From: Promethearchaeota archaeon
Lineage (GTDB): Archaea; Asgardarchaeota; Lokiarchaeia; Sigyniarchaeales; SOKP01
Assembly (NCBI GenBank): GCA_029838195.1
Contig: JALGVJ010000009.1
Span: forward strand, 50,661-114,660
Direction of reading: 5' to 3'
DNA length: 64,000 bases
The notes below the pieces were generated by a model. The model was given only the letters and a program-made list of their open reading frames with translations. It made no database searches and was not told where the DNA came from. The translations under genes were made by a program, and so were the position numbers. This document shows positions 2,677 through 9,503 of this stretch, in pieces (the stretch's first letter is position 1; the number at the start of each line of letters is the position of its first letter).

Positions 2677-3204
2677 TCAACTCCGGTTTTTCTTAAACAC
2701 CTTTCTCAGCCAACTTAAAAAACCCGTTCTGTTGGTTTGAAACGTGTTTAGAAATTTTAACGTTTTCGTATTATTCGGACACCCTTCACATTCCTCGTGC
2801 CCCCCGCAGTTCTTCCGTGCCAAATTCATATCGAGCAAGACTTGCTTGAAATCATCAAATTGCGAAACCTCCCCATCAAACGCCTCCAAGGTTGAATCAT
2901 ATTTGCTCGTAAAAATCCCCGCAATCCTTCGAATTTTAAAATTAATATCACTCGGATCTTCCCCGCCATCCGAAATGAACACGTGAAGCAAATCAGGCCT
3001 CCTCTCATCCCTGTAAAAATAAAAATTATACTCCTCAAGATTAATCGATTTAATCGTAGACCCGGTTAACTCCTTCGAAAAATTTTGTAAAGCACATAAA
3101 AACCCTGTCAATAACTCCTCATTCGACCCTAATGAATGACACTCACCAAAATGTAATTTTATCAAGGGAACCCCATCCTTGATGATGAATATATTCCGAA
3201 TCAT
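2677..3204 (-). CDS. Longin/roadblock-like domain protein with C-terminal Cys motif and amphipathic tail
   Basis: MIRNIFIIKDGVPL...LLTGFLCALQNFSKEL...IKSI pattern typical of Asgard longin-like domains; CGGHEECEGCP; GFLSWLRKVF tail. Confidence 0.7.
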   Translation of the reverse strand: MIRNIFIIKDGVPLIKLHFGECHSLGSNEELLTGFLCALQNFSKELTGSTIKSINLEEYNFYFYRDERRPDLLHVFISDGGEDPSDINFKIRRIAGIFTSKYDSTLEAFDGEVSQFDDFKQVLLDMNLARKNCGGHEECEGCPNNTKTLKFLNTFQTNRTGFLSWLRKVFKKNRS

Positions 3205-3798
3205 GACTTAAGCATTTTAAAATTCATTCTATAAGAAAATTCATATCCCTTAATTTTTAAATCTTATTTTCATGAAATATAATCCACTCTCATCCGTTCC
3301 TCCCATCCCTTGCGCACACCACCTCTCTCACCAAAAAACCAAGTAAAGATTCCCTCTCTGTAATACACTCATCCAAATTTTATTCTATACACGTCTTCCC
3401 TATCGATGATTTCTATTTATTAAAATTCTTTCTAACCCTAATAAACCATATCTTTTACCAGCCCCCATTATCCTTGTAAATACGACACTCGCTTCCCTCC
3501 ACGTGATTTCTAAATTAACCCCCCCAATTTATCACCCGCCTAATTTCAAATCTTAGGTCTATCCTTTCTTCCCTCATCTCCCCCCTCCAGCCAACACCCT
3601 CTCAGCATGACATTATCTTCCTCTTCAAACCATTGGTGTTTCCCAATTTGACAAAAAAATTAAGAAAAATTAAATATCCTAAAATAAAATCCTATAAGAA
3701 TTAATATTAAATTAAATTGTTAATTGTTTAAATTATATAATACGTTTTAATAACACATGAATTAAAGATCCTATATATTAGGAGGTATCAAGATAAAA

Positions 3799-3806
3799 AA
3801 GGTGAG
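3799..3806 (+). promoter_or_regulatory. Shine-Dalgarno site for the hdrA TTG start
   Basis: AAGGTGAG, with AGGTGA ending 6 nt before TTG at 3812; complementary to the archaeal 16S 3' end. Confidence 0.65.
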
Positions 3807-3811
3807 AAAAT

Positions 3812-5773
3812 TTGTCTGATAATCAGACCACGGGTAAACCTACGGTGGGAGTTTTCGTATGCCGCTGAGGGATTAACATCGCTGGGATCTTAGATGTTCC
3901 ACGCATGGTTATAGAATTAAACAAGTTAGAAGGCGTGAAAGCGTTCGAATATATTAGCATGTGTACGGAGGGAGGCGCTACCTATATTAAGGAGCAGATA
4001 GCTGAGAGCAAGCTCGAGCGCATCGTCGTGGCGGCTTGCACGCCCCGCACCCATCAACCAGTCTTTCATGCTATTTTAAAGGAAGCTGGTTTGCCACCTC
4101 GATATTTGGAGTTCGTTAACATACGAGAGCATTGTAGTTTTGTCCATCAAGCACTTGAAATTCGAGAGAAGGCATTTAATAAAGCCTTGGAATTAATTAA
4201 AGCGGGGATTGCTCGAGCCCGATTTTTAGAGGATGTTCCCACGAAGACGGTCAAGGTGAATCAAGCAGCTTTAGTGGTTGGGGGAGGCATTGCGGGCTTA
4301 TCGGCTGCCATTGACTTGGGGGATGCAGGATTTAAGGTGTATTTGGTGGAGAAGAATACGACGATCGGTGGGAGAATGTCTCAGCTCGACCGCACCTTTC
4401 CGACCGATGATTGTAGCATATGAATATTAGGCCCGAAGATGCTCGAGGCGAATCGCCATCCCAACATAGAAATCTTAAGCTATTCAGAAGTCATTGAAGT
4501 AAATGGATATATTGGAAATTTTAATGTTAAGATAAAGCGTAAATCTCGCTACGTGGATGAGACAAAATGCACAGGTTGTGGAAGCTGTACGGATGCATGT
4601 CCCATTTACGTGCCCAATTACTTTGATGAGTATCTTTCGGCCCGTAAAGTGATTGATATTGCTTTTGCTCAAGCAGTACCAGCGGTTAGAAACATTGAGC
4701 GTCATTCGTGCGTGGAATGCTTCGCATGTGTGGATGCTTGTGAGCAATCTGCAATAGATTTTAGCATTCAAGACAAGATCATGGAGGTAGAAGTTGGAAC
4801 CATCATTATAGCAACAGGTTGGGACTTATACGAAGGAGAAGATTATGGATATGGCATTTATGATAACGTCATTAATCAAATTCAATTGGAGCGAATCTTG
4901 GCACCTAATGGACCCACATTGGGCCATTTAAAGCGTCCTTCTGATGGAAAAAGGCCGAAGCGTATCTTGTTTATCAATTGCGTGGGCTCACGAGATATCA
5001 ATAAAAACCCTTGGTGCAGCGTGGTGTGTTGTAATTTATCCTTGAAGAATTCCAAGCTCATCAAGTCAGAGCATCCCGATTCGGAAATCGTGTGTGTTTA
5101 CATAGACATGCGTTGTGCCGGAAAAGATTATGAGGAGTATTACCGGCGATCTCGCGATGCGGGTATTATTTTCGTAAAGGGTATCGTGGGTAAAATTGAG
5201 GAAGATCCAGAAACAAAGAACTTGCGCGTTTGGTTTGAGCCGGTTGGAGCAGATACGGTGATAAGCAAGGAATTTGACATGGTGGTACTATCCTCATCAT
5301 CGTTGCCCTCGAAGGGAACGAGGGAAATAGCAGAAGTACTTAACATGGAGCGGAGTCCTGACGGATTTTTAAAAGAATATCATGCACGATTAGACCCGAT
5401 AAGTACTAAAGTATATGGCATTTATATTTGCGGCTCATCTCAAGGACAGAAGGAAATCGATAAAGCAGTGAGTCAAGCAAAGGGAGCCGCCTCTAGTGCG
5501 GCAATTCCCATGAAAAAGGGAGAGTTTACCATTGAATTAATTCGAGCTACACCGTCAGATGAGCGATGTGCAAAATGCTATAAATGCATAGAGATCTGTC
5601 CATTTAGTGCAATCTCTGTGAATGAAACTGGAAATCTAGTAGTTGATTTAATTGCGTGCCGAGGATGCGGAACTTGCGCAGCTATTTGTCCTTCGAAAGC
5701 GATTGATTTAATTTATTATCGAGATCTACAATACATGAATTTGATAGATGAATTACTTCCCATGGAAGATTAA
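3812..5773 (+). CDS. hdrA: Heterodisulfide reductase subunit A (FAD/FeS), selenoprotein with two Sec (UGA 3866-3868 = U19; UGA 4421-4423 = U204), 653 aa
   Basis: One continuous frame from TTG 3812: MSDNQTTGKPTVGVFVCR-U-GINIAG (HdrA C-x-C-G-x-N-I-A motif), VAACTPRTH, VNIREHCS, GGGIAG, TFPTDDCSI-U-ILGPKM (C-S-x-C motif), CVGSRD, ferredoxin motifs. Joins ORF-track pieces 3905-4423 and 4439-5773; ends in TAA. Confidence 0.95.
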
Positions 5774-5786
5774 AGAGGTTAAAAAA

Positions 5787-6233
5787 ATGTCGGAAATGGA
5801 TGATATTAAGATTTTGGCTTTCCTCTGTTGGAAATGAGGATATGGGTCGGCAGACATGGCAGGAACCATTCGTGCGCAATATCCCACGTCGATTCGGCCT
5901 GTTTTAGTTCCATGTACGGGTAGGGTAGGAGCAGACGATGTCATGCGGGCGTTTGGAAGAGGAGCAGATGGCGTGATGATTGTAGGATGATATCCTCATG
6001 AATGTGACTATGAAATCGGGAATTTTTTCGCTTATCGTCAGGTGGAATATTTAAAAGAAGTAATGAGGGCTGTTGGACTTAGTGAAGAGAGGCTCATGAT
6101 GGGCTTCTGTTCGGCAGCAGAAGGAGAGAAGTTTCAGAGAACGGCCACGGAATTTGACAAGCGAATTAGAGAATTAGGGCCGAGTCCGTTGAGAACAAAA
6201 AGCGGCACCTCCAAAAAAAAAGCAAAAGTATAA
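5787..6233 (+). CDS. mvhD: Hydrogenase iron-sulfur subunit MvhD/VhuD/FlpD, selenoprotein with two Sec (UGA 5835-5837 = U17; UGA 5988-5990 = U68), 148 aa
   Basis: ATG 5787 with GAGGT SD. Reads MSEMDDIKILAFLCWK-U-GYGSADMAG...VPCTGRV...GADGVMIVG-U-YPHECDYEIGN...SAAEGEKF...LGPSPL; both UGAs are at conserved Cys of MvhD (CxWC and GCxxxxC). The ORF track shows only 6042-6233. Confidence 0.95.
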
Positions 6234-6237
6234 AAAA

Positions 6238-6307
6238 CGTGTTAGCTGATGATGCTGGGTTGGAAATATTAGAACCTAGTGGAGGAAATGGTTGCACCAT
6301 TAACACG
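6238..6307 (+). promoter_or_regulatory. Eukaryote-like SECIS element in the 3' UTR of hdrA-mvhD
   Basis: Helix I CGTGTTA(6238-6244)/TAACACG(6301-6307); core ATGAT(6249-6253)/GGAG(6281-6284) giving tandem G.A pairs; helix II GCTGGGTT(6254-6261)/AACCTAGT(6273-6280); apical loop GGAAATATTAG containing AAA; begins 5 nt after the mvhD stop. Confidence 0.85.
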
Positions 6308-6463
6308 CCTTTAATCATTAAAAAAATATAAAGATTTAAGACACGTATTAGAAAAAATAAAGAGAGAACAACTTGAAGTTTTAAAACAAATTAAATAGAA
6401 ATTTTAAAAAAAAATAACTTGTTCCATTTAATAATTAAAAATAACTATTCAAGTGGGAAATAC

Positions 6464-7603
6464 ATGGATGCAATTGCTGAATATCTGATCAAGATAAAGG
6501 ATTTTCAAGAATTATTATCTACTCTTTTAGAGCAGAAAGTAGTAGATAAGGTACTTGGCGCAAAATTGAAGGTTGATAAAAAATCGGGGGGAATTAACCG
6601 TTTTACGGTCGTACCAGAAGCGGTTTCTGATCCCAATGGAGTGTCAGGTTTTCCCTTGACGGCGCTTTTAGCCTATGGATATGCCCGAACGGATTCTGCG
6701 GCAAAGTACGTGCACAAATCACTTCAAGGAGCGAAGGAAGAAAAAATAGGTATTATTGCGAGACCCTGTGATACGCGGGCGCTCATTGAATTGGCTAAAT
6801 TAAAACAAGTAAATTTGGAAAACATTTTCATCATTGCATTTGAAGACAGGGGCACGGTTCCGAAGGCTTCCAGAGAGATCAAGAAAATAAAGGATGTGGA
6901 TCCTTCGAAAATCGTAAAAGAGAAAGTAGAAGATGGTGGCCTCCTCGTTCAGTTAGAGGATGGTACTACTAAACTGTTGAATCTCACGATTGCGGAGAAT
7001 TGCTTGCGATGTTATCGGAAAAAACCGGTCATGGCAGATTTATCCATTAGCGATTTGGGAATTCCTATAGAATCCGATGAAATTATCTTAAAAGTATATT
7101 CTGAAAAAGGAAATGATGTGTTAGAAAAATCGGGAATACAGAAAAATCCAATTTCGGATCAAGTGAAAAATGCTCACGAAACTAAATATAAAGAAATCAT
7201 TGAAAAAGCACGGGAAAAGCGAGCAAAAGATTTGGAGGAATGGGCAAATCTTCCTCAAGAAAAAAAGATCGAACTCTTGAAAAAATGTACTGCTTGCGGA
7301 ACATGTATTCGTGGATGTCCTGTTTGTTATTGCGTGGATTGCATATTAATGAAGAAAAGAAAAGAAAAGTCAATCGATACTGTGAGTTATCAATTAACCC
7401 GCATAGCACATGATGCAGATCGATGCGTGGAATGTGGAAATTGTGATAATAATTGTCCAATGAACATTCCTCTTTCCTTATACTTTCAATCGTTAAATGA
7501 TGCCTTCAAGGAAAAGTTTGACTATGAACCCGGCATGTCTATAGAAGATATTCCTTTTCGATCCGGGATGGCAATAAAGAAAATGGAATTAGAAAAAGCA
7601 TGA
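6464..7603 (+). CDS. FrhB/FdhB (F420 dehydrogenase beta)-like / FlxB-like FeS protein
   Basis: IARPCDTRAL, NCLRC, ADLSI, CTACGTCIRGCPVCYCVDC, DRCVECGNCDNNCPMNIP. ATG 6464 preferred over TTG 6419. Confidence 0.8.
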   Translation: MDAIAEYLIKIKDFQELLSTLLEQKVVDKVLGAKLKVDKKSGGINRFTVVPEAVSDPNGVSGFPLTALLAYGYARTDSAAKYVHKSLQGAKEEKIGIIARPCDTRALIELAKLKQVNLENIFIIAFEDRGTVPKASREIKKIKDVDPSKIVKEKVEDGGLLVQLEDGTTKLLNLTIAENCLRCYRKKPVMADLSISDLGIPIESDEIILKVYSEKGNDVLEKSGIQKNPISDQVKNAHETKYKEIIEKAREKRAKDLEEWANLPQEKKIELLKKCTACGTCIRGCPVCYCVDCILMKKRKEKSIDTVSYQLTRIAHDADRCVECGNCDNNCPMNIPLSLYFQSLNDAFKEKFDYEPGMSIEDIPFRSGMAIKKMELEKA

Positions 7604-7694
7604 CGTTTTTTTTTAATTTTTTTTCATTCATGCGAAAAATTAAAATAGAAAGATTAAAATAAAATTAAATAAAACACAAGGCTAAATAAAAAAA

Positions 7695-8468
7695 ATGAGT
7701 CTTCCCTCAAAAAAAGCAATTCAAGTGGATGAAAATATCACGGATTATCAATATAAGATGCTAAACTTAGAAATGGTGCTCCGATACGACGATACCAAAT
7801 GCCTAGAATGTGGATTTTGCCACAGAGTCTGTCCCGTGACCACGCAAATAGTAGACGGAAAAGAAGTACCTTTGAAAAGAACTGCGATCGGCACGCCCGA
7901 GCAAATGAATATCAAATCTGATAAGAAGACCGTCGTGGATTTAGACAAATGCATTTGGTGTGGCTCTTGCACGTGGATCTGCCCAGGGTATACGCTAGAA
8001 TTATTCATTGATGGACAAAAAAAGTTATTATTGGTGGAGAATGGATCTCTTCCCGAATTTGAGGAAGAAATACGAGAATTAGAAGATGGCAGGAAAGTTA
8101 GGAAAGTGGTGGAAGGGAGTATTAAGATCACGTGCAATGAAACAGATGAAAAGATAATTGAAAATTTTGTCGACGAGTGTGCCGTGGGTGCCATGAGTAG
8201 AAAAGAAAAAGACATTGAAGTAGATATAAACAAGTGTATTTTATGTTTTAAATGCACAGAAGCTTCAAAGAATTATGAAAACATCAGCGTGGAAGTCCAT
8301 AGGGATCGCTTTAAACAGGTAAAGGGCGAACCGGGATCCGTATGGAATGGTATCATGTTGCGGGTATTAGGAAAAGAAGGTAAGATTAAGGGCATTATTA
8401 GTCGCACTCAAAATAAACTTGCGGATGCTGTAATGCGGCTATTAGGAAGAGAATTTATTGAAGAGTAA
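7695..8468 (+). CDS. Polyferredoxin (4Fe-4S binding protein)
   Basis: CLECGFCHRVCP, CIWCGSCTWICP, CILCFKC. Confidence 0.85.
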   Translation: MSLPSKKAIQVDENITDYQYKMLNLEMVLRYDDTKCLECGFCHRVCPVTTQIVDGKEVPLKRTAIGTPEQMNIKSDKKTVVDLDKCIWCGSCTWICPGYTLELFIDGQKKLLLVENGSLPEFEEEIRELEDGRKVRKVVEGSIKITCNETDEKIIENFVDECAVGAMSRKEKDIEVDINKCILCFKCTEASKNYENISVEVHRDRFKQVKGEPGSVWNGIMLRVLGKEGKIKGIISRTQNKLADAVMRLLGREFIEE

Positions 8469-8521: not shown

Positions 8522-9112
8522 TTAACTTTTTACCCTGTTTCTATACAAGGTAGGGTCAATAGCTTTTAACATTTTGTCCACGTCTAGAGGGAGATTTAAA
8601 AATTCCATGATTCGTTTAATTTGAGGGATGGGGTCCTGAATCATATCGGAGTAATTTACTTTGAGAACCTCGATATTTTCATTTTCGTCCATCCATAGCT
8701 CAACGTTATTTAGTTCTTTATTGAAAATTTCGATCATCTCAGGAGGATAGCCATTTTCTTCTTCACCGAGCATTTTTTGTTGCGATCGCATTATTTCTTC
8801 CATGTTTCTGTTCATGAAGATGATTTTATAGTTAAATTCCATGGGGAGATGTTTTAATAAGTGAGATATGACTTTTACGACCTTTCCTCGTGCTTCTCTA
8901 ATGATGGAATTATCCTTATCCAATCTTTTTATGGCGTCTAATTCATAATATCCTTTGGGATTGCTGTGATCTGCTTGGCGTTTATGATCCGATAAGATTT
9001 CCAATCCACCAGCTTCTAGCACCTGCATCATCATACTTGTACCCGATCTGGGAAGACCTGAAACGATGATAATGGTATTCTCTAATATCTTATGCATGTT
9101 TTGGTCATTCAT
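8522..9112 (-). CDS. Sulfotransferase-family P-loop protein
   Basis: PAPS-binding loop IVSGLPRSGTSMMM; NPKGYYE; IFMxR. Confidence 0.85.
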   Translation of the reverse strand: MNDQNMHKILENTIIIVSGLPRSGTSMMMQVLEAGGLEILSDHKRQADHSNPKGYYELDAIKRLDKDNSIIREARGKVVKVISHLLKHLPMEFNYKIIFMNRNMEEIMRSQQKMLGEEENGYPPEMIEIFNKELNNVELWMDENENIEVLKVNYSDMIQDPIPQIKRIMEFLNLPLDVDKMLKAIDPTLYRNRVKS

Positions 9113-9503
9113 GATATAGTTCTAACATATTTGGTTAACTTAGATGAAATGGCAATCCATTTCAAGAATTTATTATAATAGTGGAAAATCATTCTAATAT
9201 TTTTAACTTTTTTACTTCCATCATTTCAGAGTTTTCATGAATTTCCCGCTAATTTTAAGAGGGTATCACTCCCACCAATTATTTTGTTATTTTAGCAATT
9301 TTAAGAATTGAAAAAAGAAAGAGATAATTCACTGGCGCCCTAATCACGTTAAAAGTGAAATTTTTTATGAAATTTATTGAAATTTTTTAAGATCTTTTTT
9401 AAAATCATACTTAGGAGAGTTGAGAAATTTTTCAAATTCAAGAATGGTAAATGGCATTTAAATAGCATAAAATGATAGAGTGTTTAATAAAAAGTTTGCT
9501 AAG

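Follow-up and report, generated by a model that had tools for sequence, protein, structure and literature searches.

How can four in-frame UGA codons spread over two adjacent genes be read as selenocysteine (Sec) when the only recognizable SECIS element lies downstream of the second gene? This question is raised by an hdrA–mvhD pair in a contig of a Promethearchaeota archaeon (JALGVJ010000009.1), of which we analysed a stretch of 64,000 nucleotides, called the window here. A first-pass annotation of the same DNA had started hdrA at a TTG and mvhD at an ATG codon and had given each gene two in-frame UGAs and a TAA stop. We confirmed all of these assignments, and the four TGAs are the sole interruptions of what are otherwise single frames. 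Matches in Pfam, NCBIfam, and the PDB make the identities of both products unambiguous. HdrA is of type I, with an N-terminal Fe-S domain, a FAD domain, and two ferredoxin domains, and matches Methanococcus maripaludis HdrA (9sfi_A) with an E-value of 1e-210; MvhD (VhuD) matches PF02662 with an E-value of 9e-42. The closest relatives in the genome collection are Promethearchaeota (Lokiarchaeota), with ~64–81% identity in MvhD, and orthologous hdrA–mvhD loci have comparably short intergenic gaps. Complete genomes from the order of Promethearchaeum syntrophicum, a cultured Loki, also contain this gene pair (L227 and L228). The annotated feature ends at 6307, which is the end of the lower SECIS helix; mvhD itself ends at 6233. 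A scan for sigma-70 promoters and terminators was uninformative for an archaeon. Standard gene callers split hdrA and miss mvhD, which gives the gene models in the table value for annotation.

Table. Features of the hdrA–mvhD locus (positions in the window).
Feature	Position	Strand	Description
Shine-Dalgarno-like AGGTGA	3800..3805	+	5' of the hdrA TTG start; predicted from sequence
hdrA	3812..5773	+	653 aa; TTG 3812, TAA 5771-5773; two Sec (U19, U204)
UGA = HdrA Sec19	3866..3868	+	C-x-U of the N-terminal Fe-S domain; corresponds to Cys13 in 5odc/9sfi; TGA in 74/74 orthologues
UGA = HdrA Sec204	4421..4423	+	Canonical site; corresponds to U197 of M. maripaludis, Cys197 of 5odc, Cys205 of M. marburgensis; TGA in 77/77 orthologues
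Intergenic gap	5774..5786	+	13 nt; holds the GAGGT ribosome-binding site of mvhD
mvhD/vhuD	5787..6233	+	148-aa [2Fe-2S] adaptor; ATG 5787, TAA 6231-6233; two Sec (U17, U68)
UGA = MvhD Sec17	5835..5837	+	Corresponds to Cys16 of M. marburgensis MvhD (extra non-ligand cysteine); TGA in 80/80 orthologues
UGA = MvhD Sec68	5988..5990	+	G-C motif; TGA in 80/80 orthologues
Whole SECIS, three-way junction	6238..6307	+	Closed by lower helix P1 (6238-6244 with 6301-6307); MFE and centroid folds agree
lokiSECIS core	6249..6283	+	AUGA 6249-52; 9-bp helix 6253-61/6273-81; 11-nt loop 6262-72; GA 6282-83
Side hairpin P3	6288..6300	+	AUGG/CCAU stem; conserved loop GC at 6294-95
FdhB/ElpB-like F420-binding subunit	6464..7603	+	E 2e-40 to 9t1s_M, 1e-33 to 8rvu_E

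Three lines of evidence indicate that the four UGAs are almost certainly read as Sec: their conservation, their places in structure alignments, and the presence of the full Sec machinery. First, Cys or Sec lies opposite each UGA in homologue alignments, as the first-pass annotation had predicted, and TGA is kept in every orthologue, counting for each site only those of the 80 orthologous loci that cover it (74, 77, 80, and 80). The Sec that had been claimed in the N-terminal C-R-U-G motif of HdrA holds up in the same way, with U19 falling on a Cys/Sec column. Stops placed at random would hit Cys columns in all four cases with a probability of ~3.5e-6. The only other in-frame stops of hdrA among the orthologues are also TGAs; eight loci have one at Cys51 and 11 have one at Cys76. 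Positions 17, 19, 51, and 76 of HdrA are invariantly Cys or Sec. Three further hdrA–mvhD pairs in the same genome carry UGAs on Cys columns, whereas Cys occupies all four positions in the other paralogues. Second, in the structure alignment U204, U17, and U68 stand opposite residues given as X (Sec) in M. maripaludis 9sfi_A and 9sfi_K, and U19 stands opposite Cys. Third, the components expected elsewhere in the genome are present. A tRNA-Sec with a UCA anticodon and a long variable arm (G000:C3:36948-37040) scores above the cut-off of Rfam model RF01852, EFSec with an archaeal SelB domain III (aSelB_III) and SepSecS are encoded in the same cluster, and the SelD gene carries one in-frame TGA of its own. 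The PSTK homologue is a 267-aa ORF that spans the whole TIGR03574 model (E = 1e-44) with a score of 153.6, below the curated cut-off of 290.5.

Interruption of both frames under translation table 11 is the sole support for taking the genes to be pseudogenes or assembly errors, or for a genome-wide reassignment of UGA to Trp or Gly. Conservation already refutes these explanations, as the stops are only TGA, occur only on Cys columns, and are invariant in 74–80 genomes. Contigs from independent vent and sediment DNA runs are also identical at the positions that they cover (3866, 4421, 5835, and the SECIS). Moreover, the genome has a tRNA-Sec and uses TGA as an ordinary terminator, which ends 505 of 1,850 long ORFs and is three times as frequent as TAG. 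We assign these explanations a negligible probability.

The first-pass annotation had placed all four UGAs at cysteines of Fe-S-binding motifs. Location in such motifs is borne out, but cluster ligation is not a property of all four residues, as U17 and U204 match extra relay cysteines. U68 is at a [2Fe-2S] ligand position of the 5ODC structure, and U19 is presumably a ligand of the N-terminal cluster. The HdrA residue equivalent to U204 ligates the N-terminal cluster of the partner subunit in a crystal structure (PMC9012536); in cryo-EM states it lies between the MvhD [2Fe-2S] cluster and FAD and engages in a selenenylsulfide or in binding of an unknown ligand (PMC13518236; PMC13580544). Cys16 of M. 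marburgensis MvhD was named an additional cysteine, not a ligand (PMC13580544). MvhD U17 and HdrA U204 are thus better seen as a redox relay than as plain Fe-S ligands.

The element downstream of mvhD fits the published definition of the lokiSECIS or type I eSECIS-like element (AUGA, 9-bp stem, 11-nt loop, GA). All nine pairs of the core helix are formed, and eight of them show two-sided changes among orthologues. The loop, GGAAA...AG, has A at three of its first five positions and ends in AG. AUGA begins 2,383 nt past the first UGA; orthologous cores lie 2,360–2,407 nt past it and, nearly always, 11–21 nt after the mvhD stop. The few orthologues missed by the core pattern have a bulged helix. 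A strict lokiSECIS pattern gave four matches in the 4.5-Mb genome and none in four simulated genomes. A covariance-model search of the whole genome recovered this element alone, the model being too specific to the orthologues, and an Rfam scan of 3000-8000 gave no match to a SECIS family. Folding z-scores of the element by itself were unremarkable (-0.8 and -1.6), and the case for it therefore rests on conservation and covariation.

Does hdrA have an element of its own? The first-pass annotation had found a SECIS-like structure only 3' of mvhD and none in the 13-nt gap, and our search for a second one by pattern, covariance model, and comparison of 80 orthologues agreed. The core-like pattern had no match in 3400-6500 besides the one at 6249. 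The covariance model, which was trained on the orthologues, found nothing above chance in 3700-6236, its one match being at 10 bits inside mvhD; true distant SECIS elements score 11–27 bits with this model, and a non-canonical internal SECIS could escape both model and pattern. None of the internal or upstream candidates was conserved among the orthologues (at most 6 of 80), and RNAz detected none in the earlier study of Lokiarchaeota, as reported in its main text (PMC4989117). These results make it improbable that an unrecognized SECIS in the coding sequence or 5' UTR of hdrA serves this gene separately, even though two relatives (L223 and L224) carry a separate hdrA SECIS, one methanogen SECIS in a 5' UTR is documented, and a lokiSECIS can overlap coding sequence (PMC4989117).

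The stop codons of the two genes provide suggestive support for a shared SECIS. In 81 loci, hdrA ends in TAA (51) or TAG (30) and never in TGA; among orthologues its stop changed from TAA to TAG eight times and to TGA never, whereas the mvhD stop changed from TAA to TGA four times. This pattern, with TGA arising only at the SECIS-adjacent mvhD stop, is as expected if a UGA far from the SECIS would be recoded. A downstream non-selenoprotein control gene also favours TAG (six changes versus two), and the hdrA stop overlaps the ribosome-binding site of mvhD, which weakens the argument. Apparent TGA stops of hdrA in three loci (L166, L172, and L175) turned out to be Sec17 of a fused MvhD, as shown in two of the three genomes. 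Rearranged loci act as natural controls and fit the shared-SECIS model. One Asgard family (L225, G114; L226, G142) has a fused gene, in which a single frame with four UGAs encodes both HdrA and MvhD; the stop codon is part of the AUGA of its one SECIS. In L223 (G031:C209), hdrA and mvhD are 700 nt apart, each has its own three-armed SECIS, and hdrA ends in TGA; in L223 and L224 alike, an hdrA with its own adjacent SECIS may end in TGA. Sharing of a SECIS by hdrA–mvhD pairs is thus not universal, L223 being an exception.

Distance and the cistron boundary would be irrelevant if a SECIS acted in trans or if context allowed UGA to be read without a strict requirement for a cis-SECIS. SECIS-independent routes have been discussed for prokaryotes (PMC13188914), and no SECIS-binding factor is known from archaea. 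However, the genome uses UGA as an ordinary stop, a 3' element follows every Sec gene examined in it, including a divergent element with an AUGC/AA core that overlaps the stop of a paralogue (C1:90957-91380), and methanococcal recoding requires a cis SECIS (PMC9622424). We consider trans or context-driven reading very improbable, more so than a separate hdrA element. A 3' SECIS is functional over 520–679 nt in M. maripaludis, with no strict limit on distance (PMC9622424).

A single 3' SECIS common to hdrA and mvhD is the best reading of these results, and we infer co-transcription and action on both cistrons from it. The proposal of the first-pass annotation, that one SECIS recodes four UGAs in two cistrons over about 2.4 kb, is supported to this extent, given the lack of a second conserved element. 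In the mechanism that we envisage, hdrA and mvhD would be co-transcribed on one mRNA, and the archaeal pathway of PSTK, SepSecS, and SelD would supply Sec-tRNA(Sec), with EFSec as the delivery factor. The lokiSECIS 3' of mvhD, in its three-way fold, would be bound by a factor other than an SBP2-sized protein and would work in cis: whichever cistron a ribosome on the mRNA is translating, a UGA at a sufficient distance upstream of the SECIS would be recoded. The hdrA UAA would terminate translation normally, and mvhD would restart from its own ribosome-binding site. The products would form an electron-bifurcating module with probable input from the FdhB/ElpB-like subunit and with Sec placed in the N-terminal cluster, in the FAD-proximal C-x-x-U relay, and at the MvhD [2Fe-2S] site. 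We regard this account as a whole (co-transcription, Sec at four UGAs, one 3' lokiSECIS acting on both cistrons, and an HdrA–MvhD module) as highly probable. A whole-genome search for SBP2 gave only two L7Ae-family frames (125 aa) and therefore no SBP2-sized protein; by this and by the lack of an Rfam SECIS match, the genome and its element differ from the eukaryotic SECIS/SBP2 system. The literature that we found contains no demonstration of one SECIS recoding two cistrons, nor of an Asgard SECIS binder, two questions on which the locus bears.

The FdhB/ElpB-like gene is found in 78 of 80 orthologous loci, in nearly all of those ~130–220 nt past the core, and the SECIS may therefore sit within a longer mRNA. 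Judging from sequence, its product is probably the partner of MvhD–HdrA in an HdrA–MvhD–FdhB-like bifurcating module. Joint encoding of HdrA, an MvhD-type adaptor, and an FdhB-like subunit recalls the Elp-Hdr and Fdh-Hdr modules (HdrA–MvhD/ElpC–FdhB/ElpB; PDB 8rvu, 7bkb; PMC12350162); unlike these modules, the cluster here has no FdhA/ElpA or HdrBC gene. Neither hdrBC nor genes for large or small hydrogenase subunits adjoin the hdrA–mvhD locus. Upstream lie genes for an aldehyde:ferredoxin oxidoreductase and a 4Fe-4S partner (12-2078), and a polyferredoxin-like gene lies downstream (7695-8468); for the two Fe-S genes, no more than 17 and 23 of the 80 orthologous loci have homologues. A 175-aa ORF divergent from hdrA (2677-3204, minus strand) has a Cys-rich motif near its C-terminus and no Pfam or NCBIfam match.

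As far as their main texts go, on which all our comparisons with them draw, two papers already describe this system. In Lokiarchaeota, tandem HdrA–VhuD pairs share one lokiSECIS, which serves as many as six UGAs across ~2 kb (Mariotti et al., 2016; PMC4989117), and hdrA–frhD(mvhD) neighbours sharing one element were later reported across Asgard MAGs (Huang, Xiao and Zhang, 2024; PMC11227280). The locus shows all testable defining features of the published system and is therefore not new: the pair is one more example of an arrangement described in 2016 and surveyed and generalized in 2024. Like the pairs of PMC4989117, it has the same gene order on the same strand with a very short gap; a multi-Sec HdrA that always includes the site near residue 200, together with a two-Sec VhuD; one 3' element with AUGA, a 9-bp stem, an 11-nt loop ending in AG, and GA; an hdrA stop that is never UGA; the full archaeal Sec machinery; and a long reach. 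It differs from them in having four UGAs over 2.38 kb, a loop that starts with GGAAA instead of AAAAA, and a tRNA-Sec without an intron. The AUGA_GA core is also that of the Asgard type I eSECIS-like element, for which loop variants including G[U/G]AAA were reported (PMC11227280). What the first-pass annotation had offered as its own inference, one SECIS for two cistrons, is the published lokiSECIS model (PMC4989117; PMC11227280). M. maripaludis likewise has Sec at HdrA position 197 (204 here) and at both VhuD positions (PDB 9sfi; PMC13518236). By contrast, it has one HdrA Sec, an archaeal GAA/A-bulge SECIS, and a methanogenic Hdr-Vhu-Fwd context, whereas here HdrA has two Sec and neither hdrBC nor mvhAG adjoins. 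Compared with the methanococcal GAA/A-bulge SECIS, the main element here is AUGA/GA, and the side hairpin has GAA before it but U after it.

Comparison of orthologues revealed a small hairpin directly 3' of the core GA, plus the closing lower helix. A hairpin with GC in its loop or closing it follows 105 of 106 cores, and 14 of 14 in the non-redundant set, versus a mean of 1.6 after shuffling (maximum of 5 in 300); after chance cores genome-wide, such a hairpin occurs in ~11%. In the elements of selD, a largely independent set, it is present in 29 of 34 cases, some with GU for GC, and in 6 of 8 non-redundant ones versus 1.0. Stem sequences differ completely between gene families with pairing retained; alignment of close orthologues is weak on covariation because the hairpin is nearly invariant there. 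The hairpin also follows monocistronic and selD elements, and we therefore rejected the idea that it belongs to long-range bicistronic recoding alone. The tRNA-Sec variable-arm loop, GCGAA, resembles the hairpin loop, but mimicry of this arm is unsupported: 15 of 19 tRNAs have GC in the arm loop, and genomes whose tRNAs lack it (G025 and G028) retain GC in the SECIS hairpin.

The main texts of the 2016 and 2024 papers do not describe a third helix (PMC4989117; PMC11227280), and a literature search combining SECIS, three-way junctions, and archaea found no paper on the topic. The model in the main text of PMC11227280 consists of a core with upper stem and loop, an internal loop, and a lower stem without conserved nucleotides, whereas the element here includes a third helix, in which a GC is conserved; the 49 'eaSECIS-like' calls of that paper, downstream of the core, may in part correspond to the side hairpin. 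We propose, as an idea for which the balance is even, that the Asgard SECIS is a three-way, k-junction-like RNA and not a shortened eukaryotic hairpin. Its GC-loop third helix would be a required, unpublished determinant of Asgard SECIS elements at large (among them those of hdrA/mvhD and selD), with no special tie to long-range bicistronic recoding. It would probably dock an SBP2-replacing factor or EFSec/ribosome and would have been lost en route to the eukaryotic SECIS. The conserved helix offers a concrete target for mutation and improves the model with which Asgard selenoproteins can be searched for.

Several other loci were noted. In the window, a 17.7-bit SECIS-like match at 9099-9171 (plus strand) lies over the start of a minus-strand gene (8522-9112), and L032:4985-5056 gives a 42-bit match on the opposite strand; we took the window match as chance, there being no plausible upstream UGA frame. 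On the minus strand of G000:C39, a small GDCCVxC-like ORF with four in-frame UGAs precedes a lokiSECIS (core 9962, L189) that has a side hairpin. This ORF falls outside the seven Asgard selenoprotein families given in the main text of Huang, Xiao and Zhang (2024; PMC11227280). A ubiquitin/MoaD-like ORF (G000:C34, minus strand, core 12266, L187) has two adjacent UGAs after P-G-C and a lokiSECIS behind them, and is a candidate Sec-Sec selenoprotein. Two ORFs of ~115–135 aa (G000:C7:32150, L185, and C38:69225, L188, both on the plus strand) have one in-frame UGA with a Cys five residues on and near-identical SECIS helices 3' of each, and are possibly HesB/IscA-like selenoproteins. On the minus strand of G000:C19 (core 29954, L186), an ORF of ~50 aa with a single membrane span ends in S-U-P-G, with a perfect lokiSECIS 3'; its C-terminal Sec layout recalls eukaryotic SelK/SelS. 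A paralogous pair (G000:C1:88908-91430, L183) encodes HdrA with U19 and U204 and MvhD with U17 only; its non-canonical AUGC/AA core overlaps the mvhD stop, with the lower helix and the GC-loop hairpin retained. Further SECIS-like elements with a side hairpin lie at G000:C35:169262 (minus strand) and C34:75832 (plus strand).
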